A stretch of 11,341 bases of DNA, from the NCBI GenBank assembly GCA_049510745.1, contig JBEKYR010000074.1, forward strand, positions 1 through 11,341, written 5' to 3'. Under the pieces are notes generated by a model. That model saw nothing but the letters and a program-made list of their open reading frames with translations, searched no databases and was not told where the DNA came from. This document shows positions 5,734 through 11,314 of this stretch, piece after piece. Source of the stretch: Verrucomicrobiota bacterium. GTDB taxonomy: Bacteria; Verrucomicrobiota; Verrucomicrobiia; Limisphaerales; Palsa-1400. The translations under genes were made by a program, and so were the position numbers. The number at the start of each line of letters is the position of its first letter. The first letter of the stretch is position 1.

Positions 5734-5882
5734 TGTAGTTCAAAGCATGCCGCCGCGAACCGGTCAGGCGCGACATAAATCTGACGAGCGTTTCCAAGAG
5801 TCTGGAGCGACCGAGGGCCGCCATAATAAGGTCCGCATCAACCAATCCGAATATGTGAATTCGAGATCAATCTGCCCCGCCC

Positions 5883-5945
5883 GCAAAATATTTGTAAAAT
5901 TTGCAAAATATTTCTTGCATGTAACCAGTGACATGTGCTATACGT
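5883..5945 (+). promoter_or_regulatory. Putative sigma70-type promoter of the tRNA array with AT-rich UP region and internal operator-like palindrome
   Basis: TTGCAT (5915-5920), TGn-TATACG (5936-5944), repeated GCAAAATATTT upstream, CATGTAAC-ca-GTGACATG (5918-5935). Confidence 0.55.
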
Positions 5946-5956
5946 CTTTAAGTTCG

Positions 5957-6127
5957 ATGAAGACTTGCTTAAACATATCAGCCACGAGTTGGCCGACGAT
6001 GGCGGTCGCGAAAGCGACACGTCATAGCCGGTACACCCAAGGCTATGTGTTTAGCCTTGGACTATCCTTGGCATCCATCGGGAAACAGCCCGAGGGTAAT
6101 TTGGATAGACACGGTGTAGGCAGGTAA
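5957..6127 (+). CDS. Putative attenuator leader peptide (56 aa)
   Basis: ATG just downstream of predicted -10; stop 21 nt before terminator; all 20 amino acids and 46 distinct codons; last codons complementary to terminator 5' arm. Confidence 0.65.
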   Translation: MKTCLNISATSWPTMAVAKATRHSRYTQGYVFSLGLSLASIGKQPEGNLDRHGVGR

Positions 6128-6148
6128 CGAATCGAAACAGAATTTTTC

Positions 6149-6185
6149 ACCCTGCTTACCCCGCGTAGGCAGGGTTTTTTATTTT
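6149..6185 (+). terminator. Intrinsic terminator (attenuator) ahead of the tRNA array
   Basis: ACCCTGCTTAC-cccgc-GTAGGCAGGGT 11-bp stem (one G:U) followed by TTTTTATTTT. Confidence 0.88.
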
Positions 6186-6474
6186 CCCTGTATGACTGAG
6201 ACGAGAATGGCAGATAACGAAAGACGAACGATCTGTGAACAAGAATAGAGCGACATCCAGGTGATGTCTTTTGGTGACAATTTGAATTTGGCGAGGACGA
6301 GCAGAGAAGCCTCACCGGTGGGGTCTGCCCACGACCAGAAGACAGCGTCACCAAGACGAACGAGACGAATTTTAGATTTACAAATTAAGGGCTTCGCAGG
6401 AGGTGTGCCCCTAAACACCGAAACAGCCGCCGTGAAACCGCGGGTTGGGATCGAATAGATCGCCAAGAGGTGTT

Positions 6475-6490
6475 TGTTCTTTGTTGAAAT
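6475..6490 (+). promoter_or_regulatory. boxA-like antitermination motif
   Basis: TGTTCTTTG directly upstream of the first tRNA-like element; resembles rrn boxA TGCTCTTT. Confidence 0.45.
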
Positions 6491-6495
6491 GGCAT

Positions 6496-6559
6496 GGGCC
6501 GGGAGCAATTCAAGTGCAGAATGCAAAATGCAGAGTGCGGAATCCTCTCCCGGCCCCCA
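6496..6559 (+). pseudogene. tRNA-like remnant, anticodon arm replaced by heptamer repeats
   Basis: GGGCCGGG/CCCGGCCC stem ending CCA, D-like GCA-attcaag-TGC, T-like AGAG-tgcggaatc-CTCT; centre is AGAATGCAAAATGC. Confidence 0.4.
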
Positions 6560-6597
6560 ATTTTTCCACTACAAAGCGCCGAATGAAGAATCAAGAA

Positions 6598-6960
6598 TCA
6601 CCCACTGGATTCCTGGTTACGCCGTGCCGTATTAATCGAGGAGATGGCGATGGCAACGAGTTCATTGGCCTCGCGCAGCAGGTCGGCGGCGTTTGTGTTT
6701 GCCTTGCCCGACTCCCGCAACAACTCAATCCAATAGGCAGATTCATCAGCCTCTTCGAGCACTGTCCCCATTTTGGAGATGAAGTCGGCTTTGGACTTGG
6801 CGCGACAGGCAGCGCGATAGTTCGCCCCAACCGAGCATCCGGATCGAAGCAGCTGTCGCCCAAGGGTTTTGCCTATGTCGTCCTTTGGCAGACTTTCGCA
6901 GAATTTCATCACTTTGAGCGCAAAATGTTTCGTTCGAAGTTGTAGATTCTCGTGTTTCAT
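6598..6960 (-). CDS. Four-helix bundle protein (23S rRNA intervening-sequence protein-like family)
   Basis: 120 aa; LGRQLLRSGCSVGANYRAACRAKSKADFISKMGTVLEEADESAYWIELL signature; flanked by inverted heptamer repeats. Confidence 0.92.
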   Translation of the reverse strand: MKHENLQLRTKHFALKVMKFCESLPKDDIGKTLGRQLLRSGCSVGANYRAACRAKSKADFISKMGTVLEEADESAYWIELLRESGKANTNAADLLREANELVAIAISSINTARRNQESSG

Positions 6961-7003
6961 TATTTGAACTCTGCACTCTGCATTCCAAACTTTCAACTTC
7001 AAA

Positions 7004-7075
7004 AGGCTGAGCGTCAGCACGCGGCCGAGTCTCCAAAACTCAGCTTACTCCGGGCGGCACGGAGGCAGCCTGCCA
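7004..7075 (+). tRNA. trnW: tRNA-Trp(CCA), atypical
   Basis: AGGCTG/CAGCCT acceptor, G73, CCA; GAGT-ctCCAaa-ACTC; T arm CTCCG-ggcggca-CGGAG; short D arm. Confidence 0.7.
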
Positions 7076-7081
7076 TTTTCC

Positions 7082-7156
7082 GGGGTCGTGGCAGACAAGC
7101 AATGCACTTGCCTTGCAAGCAAGTTTATATGGGAGCGTTACCCATCGACTCCACCA
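7082..7156 (+). tRNA. trnA: tRNA-Ala(TGC)
   Basis: GGGGTCG/CGACTCC with G3:U70, A73, CCA; CTTGC-ctTGCaa-GCAAG; T loop AGCGTTA. Confidence 0.9.
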
Positions 7157-7256
7157 GCCTTCGCCCGCTGCGTGTCAGCGGGCGAAGGCTGCCCGCCATA
7201 GCTTTAGCGACGGCGGGCCTTATCGTTCATCCTGCGCGGCTACGGCTGGCAGGCCA
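7157..7256. repeat. REP-like spacer module
   Basis: Starts GCCTTCGC directly after CCA, nested hairpins, ends GCTACGGCTGGCAGGCCA. Confidence 0.75.
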
Positions 7257-7262
7257 TTTCAC

Positions 7263-7340
7263 TGCGGGGAACTCGACTAAAGCACAGAGGACGGTCTCAT
7301 AAACCGTTTGAGGCAGGTGTGATTCCTGCCCCCGCTACCA
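7263..7340 (+). tRNA. trnM: tRNA-Met(CAT), initiator-like acceptor
   Basis: TGCGGGG/CCCCGCT with 1:72 mismatch, A73, CCA; ACGGT-ctCATaa-ACCGT; T loop TGTGATT. Confidence 0.85.
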
Positions 7341-7346
7341 ATTTCC

Positions 7347-7434
7347 GGGAAGTGATCCGGCTGCCGGTCTGTAAAACCGGTGTCTTCAAACAAGCTGGAA
7401 GCGACGACTGGAGCATTACCAGCACTTCCCACCA
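7347..7434 (+). tRNA. trnY: tRNA-Tyr(GTA), D-armless, 8/4-type fold
   Basis: GGGAAGTG/CACTTCCC, A73, CCA; CCGGT-ctGTAaa-ACCGG; 27-nt variable region; CTGG-agcatta-CCAG. Confidence 0.75.
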
Positions 7435-7535
7435 GCCTTCGCCGCCGCGTAGCGGGGGGCAAAGGCTGCCGCGCCGTAGCTTTAGCGAAGGCGGGCTTTA
7501 TGCACCGTCCTGAGCGGCTACGGCTCGGCAAGCCA
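7435..7535. repeat. REP-like spacer module
   Basis: GCCTTCGC...CGCCGTAGCTTTAGCGAAGGCG...GCTACGGCTCGGCAAGCCA; same layout as 7157-7256. Confidence 0.75.
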
Positions 7536-7539
7536 TTTC

Positions 7540-7619
7540 GGACTCGTAGCTCAATCAGTCCCGACGAGTCGGGATTGTCTGCGGGAGGGTTGAGGGTGCA
7601 ACTCCCTTCGGGTCCGCCA
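7540..7619 (+). pseudogene. trnD: tRNA-Asp(GTC)-derived gene disrupted by a small palindrome
   Basis: GGACTCG/CGGGTCC, G73, CCA, T arm intact, GTC at 7577-7579; D-stem 3' strand and anticodon 5' strand replaced by GTCCCGAC-ga-GTCGGGAT. Confidence 0.65.
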
Positions 7620-7620
7620 T

Positions 7621-7695
7621 CAGCGCGTAGTGTAGGAGCAACATGCTTGGCCTGGGACCAAGTGACCGCAGGTGCAAGTCCTGCCGCGCTGACCA
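7621..7695 (+). tRNA. trnP: tRNA-Pro(TGG), C33
   Basis: CAGCGCG/CGCGCTG (C1:G72), A73, CCA; CTTGG-ccTGGga-CCAAG; T loop TGCAAGT. Confidence 0.88.
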
Positions 7696-7702
7696 TTTCG
7701 AC

Positions 7703-7778
7703 GCTGCCGTGGCCGAACATATCAGGCATCCGTCTTCTAAGCGGATAGATGCAGGTGAGAATCCTGCCGGCAGCGCCA
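7703..7778 (+). tRNA. trnR: tRNA-Arg(TCT)
   Basis: GCTGCCG/CGGCAGC, CCA; TCCGT-ctTCTaa-GCGGA; T loop TGAGAAT. Confidence 0.88.
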
Positions 7779-7779
7779 T

Positions 7780-7854
7780 TGCCAGGTGGTGTCAAAGTAG
7801 CACGGCGGCCTGTTAAGCCGCGAGGTGTTGGTGCAAGTCCAACTCTGGCAGCCA
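7780..7854 (+). tRNA. trnN: tRNA-Asn(GTT)
   Basis: TGCCAGG/TCTGGCA (U1:A72), G73, CCA; GCGGC-ctGTTaa-GCCGC. Confidence 0.9.
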
Positions 7855-7861
7855 ATTTTAC

Positions 7862-7952
7862 GGAGGGCAGGCAGATATAAGCTGGCTGCGCCTGTCCCGA
7901 AAACAGGATCGGCTCAAACCCGAGGTCGGAGCGTTACCGACGCCCTCCGCCA
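7862..7952 (+). tRNA. trnS: tRNA-Ser(CGA), C33
   Basis: GGAGGGC/GCCCTCC, G73, CCA; CCTGT-ccCGAaa-ACAGG; long variable arm; T loop AGCGTTA. Confidence 0.88.
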
Positions 7953-7986
7953 GCCTTCGCTCTCCGAGCTACGGCTCGGCAAGCCA
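7953..7986. repeat. Minimal REP-like spacer module
   Basis: GCCTTCGC-tctccga-GCTACGGCTCGGCAAGCCA. Confidence 0.75.
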
Positions 7987-8014
7987 ATTCAAACCCTTAA
8001 CGAAAGGAAATCCC

Positions 8015-8170
8015 ATGAAGCCCGTCCTGCGCTATCAAAGCCAGTTGCTCTTTCGCAAGAGCTATAAACCACGTCGTGTCATTCGCATCCGACCGACCGT
8101 AAAGCTGAATCTTGTGTTCCGCCCTGCGCACCGGTTCGGCGTGAAACCGCAATTAATCACCGTCTCGTAG
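8015..8170 (+). CDS. Small highly basic hypothetical protein (51 aa)
   Basis: GAAAGGAA Shine-Dalgarno-like motif before ATG; 13 K/R, no D/E; stop overlaps 5' end of tRNA-Ile. Confidence 0.5.
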   Translation: MKPVLRYQSQLLFRKSYKPRRVIRIRPTVKLNLVFRPAHRFGVKPQLITVS

Positions 8171-8231
8171 CTCAAAAGCAGAGCCTCCGGTCGATAACCG
8201 GAAGAAGCAGGAGCGTTACCTGCCGGGACGA
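8161..8231 (+). tRNA. trnI: tRNA-Ile(GAT), C33, CCA displaced by insertion
   Basis: CGTCTCG/CGGGACG, A73; GCTC/GAGC D stem; TCCGG-tcGATaa-CCGGA; T loop AGCGTTA. Confidence 0.82.
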
Positions 8232-8363
8232 TCCGCCTTCGCCCTTCGGGCTACGGCGGACAGGCCAGCCTTCGCTCTTCGCTGCGCTACGAGCTACGGC
8301 TCGGCAAGCCCTGCGAATTCGCACTGAAGTTCATCGCGCCGTAGCGCGTAGCGCGAAGGCGGA
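8232..8363. repeat. Composite REP-like spacer (three units)
   Basis: TCCGCCTTCGCC..GCTACGGCGGA, GCCTTCGC..GCTACGGCTCGGCAAGCC and inverted CGCCGTAGC..GCGAAGGCGGA. Confidence 0.75.
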
Positions 8364-8438
8364 CCCCGAGTAGCTGAGGCAGATTAGCGCCTCCCTGAAG
8401 AGGAGGAGACGTTGGCGCGATACCAACCTCGGGGGCCA
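8364..8438 (+). tRNA. trnF: tRNA-Phe(GAA)
   Basis: CCCCGAG/CTCGGGG, CCA; CCTCC-ctGAAga-GGAGG; T loop CGCGATA; unusual G73. Confidence 0.85.
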
Positions 8439-8459
8439 TTTGTTGGCCCTATGCAAGTA

Positions 8460-8537
8460 GTCCGTGAATGCAAAGCAGCTCGCGCAGCCGGCCCTTCAAG
8501 CCGGGCCTAATCGGTGCAAGTCCGATCACGGATGCCA
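8460..8537 (+). tRNA. trnE: tRNA-Glu(TTC), C33
   Basis: GTCCGTG/CACGGAT, G73, CCA; CCGGC-ccTTCaa-GCCGG; ATCGG-tgcaagt-CCGAT. Confidence 0.85.
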
Positions 8538-8542
8538 CTCTT

Positions 8543-8639
8543 AAATGCAGAATTGAGAATGCAGAATGCAGAATTGCGTCAAACGCAGTGGGGCTTGGCG
8601 CCTTTTCATTCTTCATTCATCATTCTGCCTTCTGCATTT
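8543..8639. repeat. Inverted heptamer-repeat hairpin (GAATGCA)n...(CATTCT)n without cargo ORF
   Basis: AAATGCAGAA (8543-8552) complementary to TTCTGCATTT (8630-8639); 7-nt periodicity on both arms. Confidence 0.75.
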
Positions 8640-8646
8640 CCGCAAA

Positions 8647-8722
8647 GCCCCCGTGCCTCAGAAGCGACAGGGCGAGTTTCGTAAACTCGTAATCGTCGGT
8701 GCGAGTCCGACCAGGGGCTCCA
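8647..8722 (+). tRNA. trnT: tRNA-Thr(CGT)
   Basis: GCCCCCG/CAGGGGC (one mismatch), CCA; CGAGT-ttCGTaa-ACTCG; GTCGG-tgcgagt-CCGAC. Confidence 0.85.
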
Positions 8723-8820
8723 ATTCAGTCAGTGAATTGATGGTTCAGTGAATGAGCGAGGGGGACGGGTTTATGGCCGCTTGCCTCCAATTCACTGACT
8801 CAGTGATTCGCTGATTCTCA
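8723..8820. repeat. Inverted degenerate octamer-repeat hairpin
   Basis: AGTCAGTGAATTG complementary to CAATTCACTGACT; AGTGAAT/ATTCACT-type units. Confidence 0.65.
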
Positions 8821-8832
8821 AACTGTTTTCCT

Positions 8833-8907
8833 GGTGATCATGATGTAACAGCAGCATCACGCCCCGTGACGGCGTTTGTGCCGGTGCGAATCCGGTTGGT
8901 CACCCCA
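8833..8907 (+). tRNA. trnH: tRNA-His(GTG), C33
   Basis: G-1:C73, GTGATCA/TGGTCAC, CCA; ACGCC-ccGTGac-GGCGT; T loop TGCGAAT. Confidence 0.88.
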
Positions 8908-8918
8908 ATTTCGACAGG

Positions 8919-9049
8919 CCGAAGTTGATCGGTGAGGCATGACCTCCAACGGCTTCACCCTCTCCGACCCAAACGACCGCGGGATGCTGGACGTGGTTGG
9001 CTTCGACACGACGGTGCCGGCGGTCATCGCGGACTTTGTTCGCGAATAG
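8919..9049 (+). pseudogene. C-terminal remnant of Ro60/Rsr (TROVE-vWA) RNA-binding protein
   Basis: 8936-9049 translates [37 protein letters not shown], matching the conserved Ro60 C-terminus (F(S/T)[16 protein letters not shown]); PKLI just upstream in another frame. Confidence 0.8.
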
Positions 9050-9110
9050 CGAACGGTTCAAGGACGCCAGGAACAACGCGGGCGGAGGCGAGAATCTCCG
9101 CCCGCTCTTT
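9029..9110 (+). repeat. 82-bp direct repeat copy 1 (Ro60 3' end plus terminator-like hairpin)
   Basis: 75/82 identical to 9783-9864; contains GCGGGCGGAG-n8-CTCCGCCCGC followed by TCTTTTT. Confidence 0.9.
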
Positions 9111-9144
9111 TTCACTTAAACCCTTCACAATTATGAAAGGACGT

Positions 9145-9750
9145 ATGAAAACTAAGCGCACCAAACGCCAATCCAAATTGACGTTCAGGTTGAGATCTTA
9201 CGGCAGCTACATTGACGAGGCCTATCAACTTGAAGCGACGCTTGCCAAGAAGCCTGCTCGTCTGCAGATCGACATGGTGGGATCAGGCGAGATTCCGCCC
9301 GATGCCGCGCTCCTCATGCGATCCATCCTGCAAAAACGATCGCCCAAGACGCGTCTTGTCACGAACGCGCGCTCCAGTCTTCAAGGATCTTCCGTTCTCA
9401 TCTGGTTGCTCGGCGACACGAGAATCATCCGCGAAGACGCGCGCCTGCAGTTCCGTTCCGCCGGCGCATTCTCAACCGATGCCGATACGGCTTGGAAAGA
9501 TCGCAGCTTCTTCGATGACGACCCATTCGAAGAAGAGGACTACCTCAAGGTGCTTCAAGCTATCAACGAATTCCTTCCCGTTAAGGAATTAGCCGGACAT
9601 CCGATCGAAGTCCCGGTCTTGAAGGAATTTGGACTGGTGGACAACGAAAAGCTGGACGACTTGCTCGCCACCGCCTTTCAAACGGCGAAAGAAACCGGCG
9701 AAAAGCAGCGGCCAAAGCCTAAAACGATTGCGAAAGTACCAAGCCAGTGA
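9145..9750 (+). CDS. Hypothetical protein, divergent ClpP/crotonase-like fold, probably non-catalytic
   Basis: AAAGGA RBS before ATG 9145 (alternative ATG 9133); LQIDMVGSG...LVTNARSSLQGSSVLIWLLGDTR...ARLQFR and LKEFGLVD align by eye with ClpP motifs. Confidence 0.65.
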   Translation: MKTKRTKRQSKLTFRLRSYGSYIDEAYQLEATLAKKPARLQIDMVGSGEIPPDAALLMRSILQKRSPKTRLVTNARSSLQGSSVLIWLLGDTRIIREDARLQFRSAGAFSTDADTAWKDRSFFDDDPFEEEDYLKVLQAINEFLPVKELAGHPIEVPVLKEFGLVDNEKLDDLLATAFQTAKETGEKQRPKPKTIAKVPSQ

Positions 9751-9782
9751 CTCCGACGAAGACGGCGGCACTGAAGCCTGAT

Positions 9783-9864
9783 GCGGACTTTGTTCGTGAA
9801 ACGCGAACGGTTCAAGGACGCCAGGAACAACGCGGGCGGAGGCGGAAGTCTCCGCCCGCCCTTT
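9783..9864 (+). repeat. 82-bp direct repeat copy 2
   Basis: 75/82 identical to 9029-9110; hairpin stem conserved, loop diverged. Confidence 0.9.
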
Positions 9865-9903
9865 AATCTGGATAACAACTCTGCTTTGAAGTTTAAGTGA
9901 TGT

Positions 9904-10650
9904 ATGCGTTTGCACGTTCTCTGTGATCTGCACTTGGAATTTGGGCCGGTCAGAATCCCGCCCGCCGATGCCGATGTGGTGGTGTTGGCCGGAGACATTG
10001 ATCTTGATCGCGGGGGTTGCCAATGGGCGCAATCCCACTTTCCAGTCAAACCCGTCATTTATGTTTTGGGCAATCACGAGTTTTATCGCCATTCCTTGCC
10101 AGCCTTGACAGAGGATTTAAAACGGGAAACTGAAAACAGCCATATTCATGTGCTTGAAAACGACGCCGTCGAAATCGGCGGCTACACGTTTCTGGGATGC
10201 ACGTTGTGGACCGATTTTCAATTGTCAGGCGACGCGGAAGCAGCGATGCGGGTCGCAGAGGGGTTGATGAACGATTACAGGGTCATTCAGTTTAACCCCA
10301 AAAATCGCGCGTTGCGTGCCAGCGACACCGTTCGGCTGCATACCGAGTCCGTCGCCTGGATGCGCAAGGCTTTGGCGAAATGCAATCCCGCGCGCACTAT
10401 CGTGGTGACACATCATGCGCCGAGCGCCCGGGCCGAGGCCCCATATCATGCCGACAGCCCGCTCAAGCCGGCATTTTCGTCCAACTTGGATAATTTGATT
10501 GAGAAGAGCGGCGTTCCGTTGTGGATTTTCGGGCACACGCATTACAACGTGGAATACACGATTGGTTCCACCCGCGTCTTGACGAATCAGCGCGGTTATC
10601 CATCGGAAGGGTGTCGAGGCTTCGATCCTGGGTTGGTCATCGAAGTCTGA
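9904..10650 (+). CDS. Calcineurin-like metallophosphoesterase
   Basis: 248 aa; DLH, LAGD, GNHE, THH, GHTH metal-binding motifs, TNQRGY C-terminus. Confidence 0.93.
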   Translation: MRLHVLCDLHLEFGPVRIPPADADVVVLAGDIDLDRGGCQWAQSHFPVKPVIYVLGNHEFYRHSLPALTEDLKRETENSHIHVLENDAVEIGGYTFLGCTLWTDFQLSGDAEAAMRVAEGLMNDYRVIQFNPKNRALRASDTVRLHTESVAWMRKALAKCNPARTIVVTHHAPSARAEAPYHADSPLKPAFSSNLDNLIEKSGVPLWIFGHTHYNVEYTIGSTRVLTNQRGYPSEGCRGFDPGLVIEV

Positions 10651-10656
10651 GAAAAC

Positions 10657-10731
10657 ATCCCGTTGGCCGAGCAGCCCAGGCGGCGGTCTGCAGAACCGCA
10701 AAGGCTGGTGCAACCCCAGCACGGGATTCCA
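10657..10731 (+). tRNA. trnC: tRNA-Cys(GCA)
   Basis: ATCCCGT/ACGGGAT, U73, CCA; GCGGT-ctGCAga-ACCGC; GCTGG-tgcaacc-CCAGC. Confidence 0.88.
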
Positions 10732-10737
10732 ATTCTC

Positions 10738-10809
10738 CGGGCATAGGTGTTGAGAGAAACACGCCGGTCTTCCAAACCGGAATACAGGGCGCGATACCCC
10801 GATGCCCGA
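10738..10809 (+). tRNA. trnG: tRNA-Gly(TCC), atypical acceptor end, CCA displaced
   Basis: CGGGCAT/ATGCCCG; GTGT/ACAC D stem; CCGGT-ctTCCaa-ACCGG; T loop CGCGATA; ends uncertain by 1 nt. Confidence 0.75.
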
Positions 10810-10874
10810 TCCGCCTTCGCCGGGGGCTACGGCGGACAGGCCAGCCTTCGCCAAGGCTACGGCTTGGCAAGCCA
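10810..10874. repeat. Composite REP-like spacer (two units)
   Basis: TCCGCCTTCGCC-ggg-GGCTACGGCGGACAGG-CCA-GCCTTCGC-caag-GCTACGGCTTGGCAAGCCA. Confidence 0.75.
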
Positions 10875-10878
10875 CTTC

Positions 10879-10956
10879 CGCGACGCGAACACCGGTGCCG
10901 GCCAGGGTTTCACAGACCTGGCTGCGGTGGTTCAACTCCGCCTTCGTGTCGCGTCC
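10879..10956 (+). tRNA. tRNA-like element, best read as aberrant tRNA-Val(CAC)
   Basis: 11-bp closing stem CGCGACGCGAA/TTCGTGTCGCG, GCCAGG..ttCACag..CCTGGC arm with a bulge, GGTGG-ttcaact-CCGCC T arm, no full CCA. Confidence 0.45.
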
Positions 10957-11031
10957 GGGTTGCAAACTTTTACAGTGAAGTCCCGGCTCTTAACCGGCGA
11001 GAACGCGGTGCAATTCCGCGGCAACCCACCA
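10957..11031 (+). tRNA. trnK: tRNA-Lys(CTT)
   Basis: GGGTTGC/GCAACCC, A73, CCA; CCGG-ctCTTaa-CCGG; CGCGG-tgcaatt-CCGCG. Confidence 0.87.
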
Positions 11032-11140
11032 AATTCAGTCAATGAGTTTACGAATTAGTGAATCAGTGAATTTGCATCGGAACATCATCATCGTTGAATT
11101 CACAAACTCACTAACTCATTGATTCATCAATTCACTCATT
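11032..11140. repeat. Inverted degenerate octamer-repeat hairpin
   Basis: TCAATGAGTT..AGTGAATC-AGTGAATT versus AATTCAC..AACTCACT-AACTCATTGA; same family as 8723-8820. Confidence 0.65.
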
Positions 11141-11146
11141 GGTTTC

Positions 11147-11223
11147 GCTCCCGTAGCTCAAAGTATTAGAGTGCGACGCTTCGAACGTCGCGGTTGCAGG
11201 TGAGAGTCCTGCCGGTAGTGCCA
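11147..11223 (+). tRNA. trnR: tRNA-Arg(TCG)
   Basis: GCTCCCG/CGGTAGT (one mismatch), CCA; CGACG-ctTCGaa-CGTCG; GCAGG-tgagagt-CCTGC. Confidence 0.85.
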
Positions 11224-11230
11224 CTTTCAC

Positions 11231-11314
11231 GGGCATGTGGTTCAACCCGAACAGCAGAGGGTCCAGACTCAGACTCTGGCAGCCTTGGGGGTGCAAGTCC
11301 CTTCATGCCCACCA
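11231..11314 (+). tRNA. trnL: tRNA-Leu(CAG), short variable region, enlarged D region
   Basis: GGGCATG/CATGCCC, A73, CCA; CCAGA-ctCAGac-TCTGG; 7-nt variable region; T loop TGCAAGT. Confidence 0.72.

Follow-up and report, generated by a model that had tools for sequence, protein, structure and literature searches.

Organization of the locus

The stretch of DNA studied here (hereafter, the window) is the whole 11,341-base contig JBEKYR010000074.1 (C74) of a Verrucomicrobiota bacterium, whose genome assembly is 5.6 Mb long and 94% complete. It contains a short open reading frame (ORF1), followed by an intrinsic terminator (terminator 1) and, farther downstream on the same strand, by a series of tRNA-like genes (the array). 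An earlier note, written from the letters of the window only, had proposed that ORF1 is the leader of an attenuator that gates a full tRNA array and responds to the loss of any tRNA. It is probable that the region 5950-6186 is a ribosome-mediated transcription attenuator of the trp type, and that it tests decoding in general and not the supply of one amino acid. The frame on which this reading turns is the following:

5957..6127, plus strand: ORF1, the leader 'test' frame, with 46 distinct codons among its 56 sense codons and with every one of the 20 amino acids (ATG at 5957, TAA at 6125-6127)

Codon content of ORF1

Our recount of ORF1 was identical to that of the earlier note (56 codons, 46 distinct, 20 amino acids). 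The frame uses every one of the four Thr and four Gly codons, as well as both codons for each of Lys, Asn, His, Tyr and Gln, and it contains TTA, ATA, CTA, AGA and AGG, which are rare in the genome (relative synonymous codon usage 0.07-0.33). There is no cluster of regulatory codons for one amino acid, and no codon is used more than three times.

The codon diversity of ORF1 is far beyond chance. About 37 distinct codons had been expected under uniform codon choice, and simulation bore this out (36.8 +/- 2.4), with 46 reached in 1e-4 of draws; stop-free mononucleotide shuffles of ORF1 gave 36.9 +/- 2.35, and again 46 in 1e-4. In the comparison with genomic windows that the note had suggested, ORF1 lay beyond all windows of 56 codons: none of 32,547 windows in long ORFs reached 44 distinct codons (mean 29.7, standard deviation 3.2, maximum 43), and none of 82,014 stop-free windows in the six frames of the whole genome reached 46 (maximum 44). 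The complete set of 20 amino acids is present in 1.4% of gene windows. Of the 42 anticodon species with genes outside the arrays, 40 are engaged by ORF1 under Watson-Crick and wobble rules; the figure for gene windows is 28.5 +/- 3.8, and 40 was reached by 2 of 21,658. With the peptide held fixed, at most 50 distinct codons are possible and 46 are observed, compared with 39.5 +/- 2.2 for uniform synonymous choice (p 0.004) and 36.3 +/- 2.3 for genome usage. A leader frame that needs nearly every tRNA would thus test general decoding.

Conservation of the frame and of its diversity

The stretch 5845-6527 has a paralog, 94% identical, on contig C73 of the same genome, and it has matches in 32 of the 61 related genomes searched (own genome counted), including 22 of the 30 of the same family. 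When one genome of each species was scanned with the peptide alignment, 76 loci were identified, with peptide identity down to 43%. Altogether we collected 97 ORF-bearing copies, of which 16 were duplicates; from the remaining 81, seven aberrant leaders were left out, namely L062 and L083 (frameshift near the end), L087, L098 and L108 (truncated or diverged), L094 (decayed terminator) and L099 (46 codons). The resulting 74 distinct leaders belong to Limisphaerales (Verrucomicrobiota). Four more copies (L012, L080, L082 and L091) run off contig ends. In IMG/VR viral contigs, 55 pattern matches were found and none was confirmed.

The open frame is kept throughout this set. In 73 of the 74 leaders the distance between start and stop is divisible by three; ten length classes, of 150-180 nt, are represented, and the spacer from the stop to the terminator (21-29 nt, 22-23 nt in 53 leaders) has no multiple-of-three bias. 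Internal stops in the ORF1 region number 0 in the coding frame and 290 and 269 in the other two. The start codon is ATG except for GTG in L021. In 71 leaders the stop codon (TAA, TGA or TAG) directly follows region 2, the pairing segment with an invariant GCAGG that is described below, and one extra codon intervenes in L018, L043 and L084. The ratio of nonsynonymous to synonymous substitution rates (dN/dS) is 0.43 in 25 disjoint pairs. The frame is thus maintained, with weak constraint on the peptide itself, a profile that fits better with a leader peptide than with a functional small protein.

The diversity is kept as well. All 20 amino acids are present in 63 of the 74 leaders, 19 in nine and 18 in two. 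When residues were shuffled within alignment columns, 28.0 +/- 3.3 sequences were complete, and 63 was reached in none of 2000 shuffles; among random 56-mers drawn from the pooled composition of the family, 3.3% contained all 20. Where a residue is missing at its consensus site it is usually found elsewhere in the same frame (W 9/9, H 13/13, Y 24/29 and E 26/28), a pattern pointing to rare residues that are relocated and not lost. The number of distinct codons per leader averages 41.8 (range 35-47); it exceeds the expectation from genome usage in all 74 leaders and that from uniform synonymous choice in 91%. Codon diversity, spacing between ORF and terminator, and complementarity, which the earlier note had named as the properties to follow among homologous leaders, are therefore all kept in the 74 sequences despite peptide identities as low as 43%.

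Eight of the 76 scanned loci (L038, L047, L062, L070, L073, L098, L102 and L107) are in bins labelled Acidobacteriota, Binatia, Saccharimonadales or Limnocylindrales, some of them on contigs longer than 100 kb. These copies could be due to mis-binning or to horizontal transfer of the array.

Terminator, antiterminator and fold of the leader

The elements of the leader RNA are as follows:

5953..5971, plus strand: 5' strands of the closing helices in the minimum free energy fold, UUCGAU at 5953-5958 (which includes the A and U of the AUG) and region 1, ACUUGCUUA, at 5963-5971
5979..6110, plus strand: internal hairpins (helices 3-9) of a multi-branch fold, with 5-7 pairs changed on both sides in each of helices 5, 7, 8 and 9
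6116..6124, plus strand: region 2, GUAGGCAGG, the last three codons of ORF1, whose partner is region 1 or region 3
6131..6136, plus strand: AUCGAA, 3' partner of 5953-5958 in the helix that hides the start codon, from the fold and from pairing in relatives
6149..6186, plus strand: terminator 1, an 11-bp stem at 6149-6175 with a 5-nt loop, then the T run TTTTTTATTTT; region 3 is 6151-6159 and region 4 is 6165-6173

As the earlier note had pointed out, the end of ORF1 copies the 3' arm of the terminator: GTAGGCAGG is present both at 6116-6124 and at 6165-6173, and CCTGCTTAC at 6151-6159. The GCAGG of region 2 is invariant in all 74 leaders. Terminator 1 has 97.4% of its alignment cells paired over these sequences, and its hairpin has a folding energy of -17.5 kcal/mol. 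The antiterminator had been drawn between 6112-6124 and 6151-6163. Here 12 of these 13 positions pair, and the 9-bp core (6116-6124/6151-6159) is conserved, each pair being formed in at least 92% of the sequences, whereas the CGG/CCG extension is specific to the window and unpaired in 38-47 of the 74. At one pair of the core, UA has become CG by a double change in five sequences, with a mismatch in six. The lineages concerned (L013, L014 and L021) have also changed region 4, so that regions 2, 3 and 4 move together. RNAalifold, unaided, picked the 2:3 helix.

The leader as a whole is strongly structured. The region 5945-6190 folds into a multi-branch structure of -98.5 kcal/mol (z -7.2 versus shuffles). 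Over the 74 sequences, the whole fold is 84.4% paired compared with 29-41% in slid controls, and 35 pairs are changed on both sides compared with 20-23. Closing helix 1 (5953-5958/6131-6136) is 76% paired with four pairs changed on both sides, and the 1:2 helix (5963-5971/6117-6125) is 83% paired. In the full RNA, the 1:2 helix (pairing probability, P, 0.94) coexists with terminator 1 (P 0.99); in the nascent RNA at equilibrium its P is 0.03.

The earlier note had placed the ORF1 stop so that a ribosome reaching it masks the antiterminator. When a ribosome footprint was masked in the nascent RNA up to 6163, this geometry was reproduced by the folding model: the predicted P of the 2:3 helix is 0.94-0.97 with the P site anywhere up to codon 48, and 0 from codon 52.

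These structural data also bear on a different explanation, that of a structured cis-regulatory RNA, riboswitch-like or protein-binding, in which the fold 5953-6136 would bind a ligand, a protein or an RNA, the 1:2 closure would decide between antiterminator and terminator, and the frame would be untranslated. The z score, the covarying helices and the nearly flat variability over codon positions are what such an RNA would have, as are the buried AUG that has no Shine-Dalgarno sequence; the order of a P1-like closing helix, antiterminator and terminator is typical of riboswitches. However, 0 internal stops against 290 and 269, in-frame length in 73 of 74 leaders, conserved start and stop and a dN/dS of 0.43 are difficult to reconcile with an untranslated frame, in which the codon and amino-acid diversity with relocated rare residues would be pointless. 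The leader has no Rfam family, T-box included: the whole window was searched at E up to 1, and 5900-6600 at E up to 10 gave only four matches at chance level. We consider this explanation unlikely. Identities of the leader as a T-box, GOLLD, ROOL or Y-RNA-like RNA were dropped because of the lack of an Rfam match.

Promoter and transcription

Upstream of ORF1 lies the following site:

5915..5944, plus strand: promoter-like site, TTGCAT at 5915-5920, an 18-nt spacer ending in TG at 5936-5937, and TATACG at 5939-5944

Our consensus scan passed over it, since its second hexamer does not end in T. The predicted transcription start is at about 5950-5952, 5-7 nt before the AUG. The block is kept in relatives, in which conservation begins at about 5905. 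Within the spacer (5918-5936), CATGT occurs twice, 14 nt apart, and is partly conserved in relatives; this repeat may be an operator additional to the attenuator.

Metatranscriptome contigs from four runs of four studies cover 5953-6513; they begin at 5953-5964, and none lies on 5902-5952. Cover from 5953 indicates that the leader is transcribed in nature from about the predicted start. Adapter junctions of RNA contigs fall at 5964-5967, and some RNA contigs span terminator 1. Differences in depth between 5953-6105, 6106-6258 and 6259-6462, the gaps at 5902-5952 and 6565-6972 and the low cover of the tRNA genes are not readable as transcript ends or expression levels, and no habitat can be inferred from the shares of 0.09-0.17 in the run search.

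A second stage between terminator 1 and the array

Between terminator 1 and the array lie a second small frame (ORF2), a near-invariant RNA module and a second terminator:

6252..6268, plus strand: hairpin GACAUC-CAGGU-GAUGUC, with the AUG of ORF2 in its 3' arm, paired in 58-59 of 59 sequences
6264..6458, plus strand: ORF2, second conserved small frame, 64 codons, 40 of them distinct, 17 kinds of amino acid, stop TAG
6387..6476, plus strand: near-invariant structured RNA module of about 90 nt that overlaps the 3' half of ORF2, with Shine-Dalgarno-like boxes AGGAGGUG and AAGAGGUG
6496..6565, plus strand: terminator 2, in which GGGCCGGGAG at 6496-6505 pairs with CUCCCGGCCC at 6547-6556, followed by UUUUU at 6561-6565

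ORF2 is intact in 63 of 72 distinct copies, with 0, 267 and 144 stops in the three frames. Its variability by codon position is flat (1.06/1.05/1.04). The listed copies have 35-42 distinct codons and 17-19 kinds of amino acid, and the mean over all 72 is 38.5 distinct codons. Two other frames were rejected as genes: an 18-codon mini-ORF at 6192-6248 (MTETRMADNERRTICEQE), for which one frame is not kept in relatives, and the frames that follow the AAGAGGTG box (TTG or ATG at 6474-6492), which by eye have no conserved stop.

In its own genome the RNA module occurs only in the two leaders. Stand-alone modules were noticed at seven places of another genome (L109-L115, G005:C1), and also at L028; AT-rich short direct repeats lie upstream of them, and no tRNA was called within 1.2 kb. 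At L109 the ORF2 frame is closed by a stop immediately upstream, so that the module acts there as RNA or DNA and not as coding sequence.

Terminator 2 was found, by regular expression, in 47 of 63 intact relatives. In the window its loop is enlarged to 41 nt by GCAGARUGC-type repeats (6516-6538).

It is conceivable that ORF1 and ORF2 are ordinary small-protein genes (56 and 64 residues) with terminators of their own, the products of which, perhaps regulators or toxins, would work together with the tRNA array. Both frames are conserved, the dN/dS of ORF1 is below 1 and transcripts are present in metatranscriptomes, as would be seen for such genes. Yet constraint on the peptides is weak, with a flat profile over codon positions in ORF2, and the end of ORF1 copies a terminator arm; neither peptide has a Pfam or NCBIfam family match, and neither ORF has a Shine-Dalgarno sequence. 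We regard this explanation as highly improbable, and a leader that is read by ribosomes for the sake of regulation accounts better for ORF1.

The tRNA array and the gene inserted before it

The leader is linked to tRNA genes at most loci. In the genome collection, same-strand tRNA genes are found downstream of 57 of the 61 leader loci with at least 1200 nt of room; among the relatives' loci, this is so at 19 of 24. The distance from the stop to the first tRNA called by ARAGORN has a median of 572 nt at loci with room; in the window this tRNA is at 7082, 955 nt past the ORF1 stop. In relatives, tRNA-like genes begin immediately after terminator 2, in the order Gly(GCC)-like, Trp(CCA)-like and Ala(UGC). 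The corresponding features of the window are:

6598..7020, minus strand: gene for a four-helix-bundle ('23S rRNA intervening sequence') protein (PF05635, 4e-14; TIGR02436, 9e-23)
7004..11314, plus strand: array of some 15-16 tRNA-like genes, non-canonical in build, with intervening ORFs; truncated at the contig end

The four-helix-bundle gene is inserted between terminator 2 and the array, outside the conserved leader, and is absent from this position in most relatives. A GCAGARTGC-type repeat recurs, inverted, beyond it (6973-6981). The same gene with similar repeats stands after terminator 2 in other lineages (also L079, L101 and L106), like a small cassette that targets this spot.

Depending on the method, the array contains 8 genes (ARAGORN default), 11 (at or above the Rfam gathering score) or 15 on the plus strand (relaxed ARAGORN). 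The array is partial in the window, where the contig end cuts it, and the 'full tRNA array' of the earlier note was not borne out. Besides arrays on C73, C74 and C75, the genome has a dispersed tRNA set, spread over 37 other contigs. An L-array has been defined by a threshold of 20 genes at 2 per kb (PMC4758250). The window has a dense supernumerary run of about 15 same-strand tRNA-like genes in 7082-11314 that duplicates the dispersed set, and 20 genes are not reached inside the cut contig.

The array genes are unusual in build. They encode CCA or CGA ends and have T loops GGUGCAAGUCC or GGAGCGUUACC in place of GGUUCGAAUCC, and they score only 42-55 bits with Rfam. A tRNA-Trp(CCA)-like gene at 7004-7075, with a CCA end and a GGCGGCA T loop, was recognized by eye; it is missed by ARAGORN and Rfam and is conserved after terminator 2 in relatives. 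The tRNA-like gene at 11231-11314 (Rfam 29.7 bits) has, according to relaxed ARAGORN, an enlarged loop with the four-base anticodon gact. The paralogous array has, at G000:C73:2821-2897 on the minus strand, what ARAGORN calls a 'Stop(tta)' tRNA, a possible reader of UAA, and TAA is the stop of most leader ORFs. A GC-rich hairpin, GCGGGCGGAGGC...GCCTCCGCCCGC, occurs twice in the array region (9078-9105 and 9832-9859), near a 272-codon ORF (8932-9750) and a metallophosphoesterase gene (9904-10650).

Comparison with known systems

Attenuators of amino-acid operons in enteric bacteria (trp, his, leu, thr, ilvGMEDA and pheA) contain a run of regulatory codons; those of thr and ilv sense two or three amino acids. 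Like these trp-type attenuators, the leader described here has a short ORF before an intrinsic terminator, mutually exclusive pairings 2:3 and 3:4, to which a competing 1:2 pairing may be added, and a stop placed so that a finishing ribosome would cover region 2. Unlike them, it has no run of a single codon but 46 different codons and all 20 amino acids; it is 56 codons long with a multi-branch fold and almost no 5' untranslated region (UTR), and tRNAs, not biosynthetic enzymes, lie downstream.

A second group consists of antibiotic-responsive attenuators, such as the erm and cat leaders, vmlR, bmrCD and yxjB of B. subtilis, PA5471.1-armZ of P. aeruginosa and the msrD leader. In these, as is proposed for the present leader, a ribosome stalled on the leader ORF frees an antiterminator, so that general impairment of translation is sensed. 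They differ in that they are short, stall through a drug and a peptide motif, and control resistance genes. Attenuators known so far respond to the availability of one to three amino acids, and leaders that sense drugs to a single kind of stall; we know of no antibiotic-responsive leader with a complete codon set or in control of tRNA genes. It could still be argued that the architecture found here is tuned to particular antibiotics, or to a nascent-peptide arrest motif of the erm/cat/vmlR type, with codon diversity being secondary. Conserved peptide blocks (MKTC.NI, WP, TRHS, VFSLGLS and LDR) would suit an arrest motif, and the terminator/antiterminator logic is shared with known drug-sensing leaders. 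However, these blocks coincide with helices of the RNA fold, and known leaders of this kind are short and need no full codon set, whereas the diversity here is extreme and maintained. Such tuning seems to us quite improbable.

T-box riboswitches also are leader RNAs in which a choice between antiterminator and terminator reports the status of tRNA. In the present leader, no Rfam T-box match was found (5900-6600, E up to 10) and no T-box sequence or specifier loop was seen. A T-box senses by binding tRNA directly, whereas the proposed sensor here is the translating ribosome.

In Anabaena PCC 7120, a supernumerary tRNA array is silent and is induced when translation is impaired, under the control of direct repeats over the -10 box and start site and a putative repressor (PMC8421152). 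The words leader, attenuat- and terminator do not occur in that paper (PMC8421152). The array studied here likewise consists of supernumerary tRNAs, for which we propose a stress-induced physiology that, as far as we know, has experimental support in Anabaena only. With the promoter repeat pattern as given there (PMC8421152), the window has no match, with up to one mismatch allowed. In the literature, with subscription journals outside our scope, we found neither a report of tRNA genes preceded by a leader ORF whose codon or amino-acid set is complete, nor one of an attenuator before tRNA arrays. The best reading of these comparisons is that the leader is a known kind of attenuator that has been varied, a general decoding test taking the place of the regulatory-codon cluster.

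Proposed mechanism and its weak points

From these features we infer translation of ORF1, its coupling to the polymerase and the regulatory outcome, as follows. Transcription would begin a few bases before the AUG, and a ribosome would load on RNA that is still being made. Pairing of region 2 (6116-6124) with region 3 would block terminator 1. A ribosome that completes the 56 codons in step with the polymerase would cover region 2, leaving regions 3 and 4 to form terminator 1, and transcription would end. A ribosome held up within roughly the first 47 codons, by a missing, uncharged or cleaved tRNA or because a drug has slowed it, would leave region 2 free to pair with region 3, and the polymerase would read through, first into ORF2, which has a terminator of its own, and from there into the array of spare, oddly built tRNAs. 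A finished, ribosome-free leader would be closed by pairing of regions 1 and 2 and by the helix that buries the AUG.

Several points speak against a ribosome-mediated decoding test. The first group concerns translation: the AUG is paired in the mature fold, no Shine-Dalgarno sequence precedes it and the 5' UTR is only about 5-7 nt. The variability of ORF1 by codon position is nearly flat (0.66/0.69/0.79) and, together with the strong structure (z -7.2), this means that much of the conservation acts on the RNA. The second group concerns the switch. In the folding model, nascent RNA without a ribosome forms the antiterminator at equilibrium (P 0.94), so that the state without translation may be ON and not OFF, unlike in trp; whether an untranslated leader terminates, as in trp, or is read through would depend on kinetics. 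Regions 2-4 are almost invariant, and covariation there therefore rests on one pair. Terminator 1 is not the last gate, with ORF2 and terminator 2 coming after it, and folding of the nascent RNA of 14 leaders gave no consistent antiterminator for terminator 2 (13 inconsistent partners, one arm not found). The third group concerns the data themselves. Only leaders in which a terminator could be recognized entered the counts. The relatives share ancestry, which the shuffle tests do not take into account, so that independent events are fewer than the counts imply. The RNA data are contigs, mostly of relatives at 90-99% identity, from which 3' ends, strand and regulation are not readable.

Biological implications

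Going further, we tentatively suggest, as a possibility that is open to considerable doubt, that ORF1 and ORF2, in tandem, act together as a general 'decoding self-test'. If any single tRNA species were lost, discharged or cleaved, the test ribosome would stall and spare, structurally recoded tRNAs that escape the damage would be switched on. Such damage might be done by anticodon nucleases that belong to toxins, phage-defence systems or phages; the terminated leader might also persist as an abundant structured small RNA.

If the attenuator reading is true, a leader dependent on about 40 of 42 tRNA species would monitor the entire decoding apparatus within a single transcript, a regulatory logic for tRNA genes that is, to our knowledge, undescribed. 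It would also provide a mechanism by which cryptic tRNA arrays are kept silent and are released under translational stress. ORF1 itself is a natural 'all-codon' reporter sequence.

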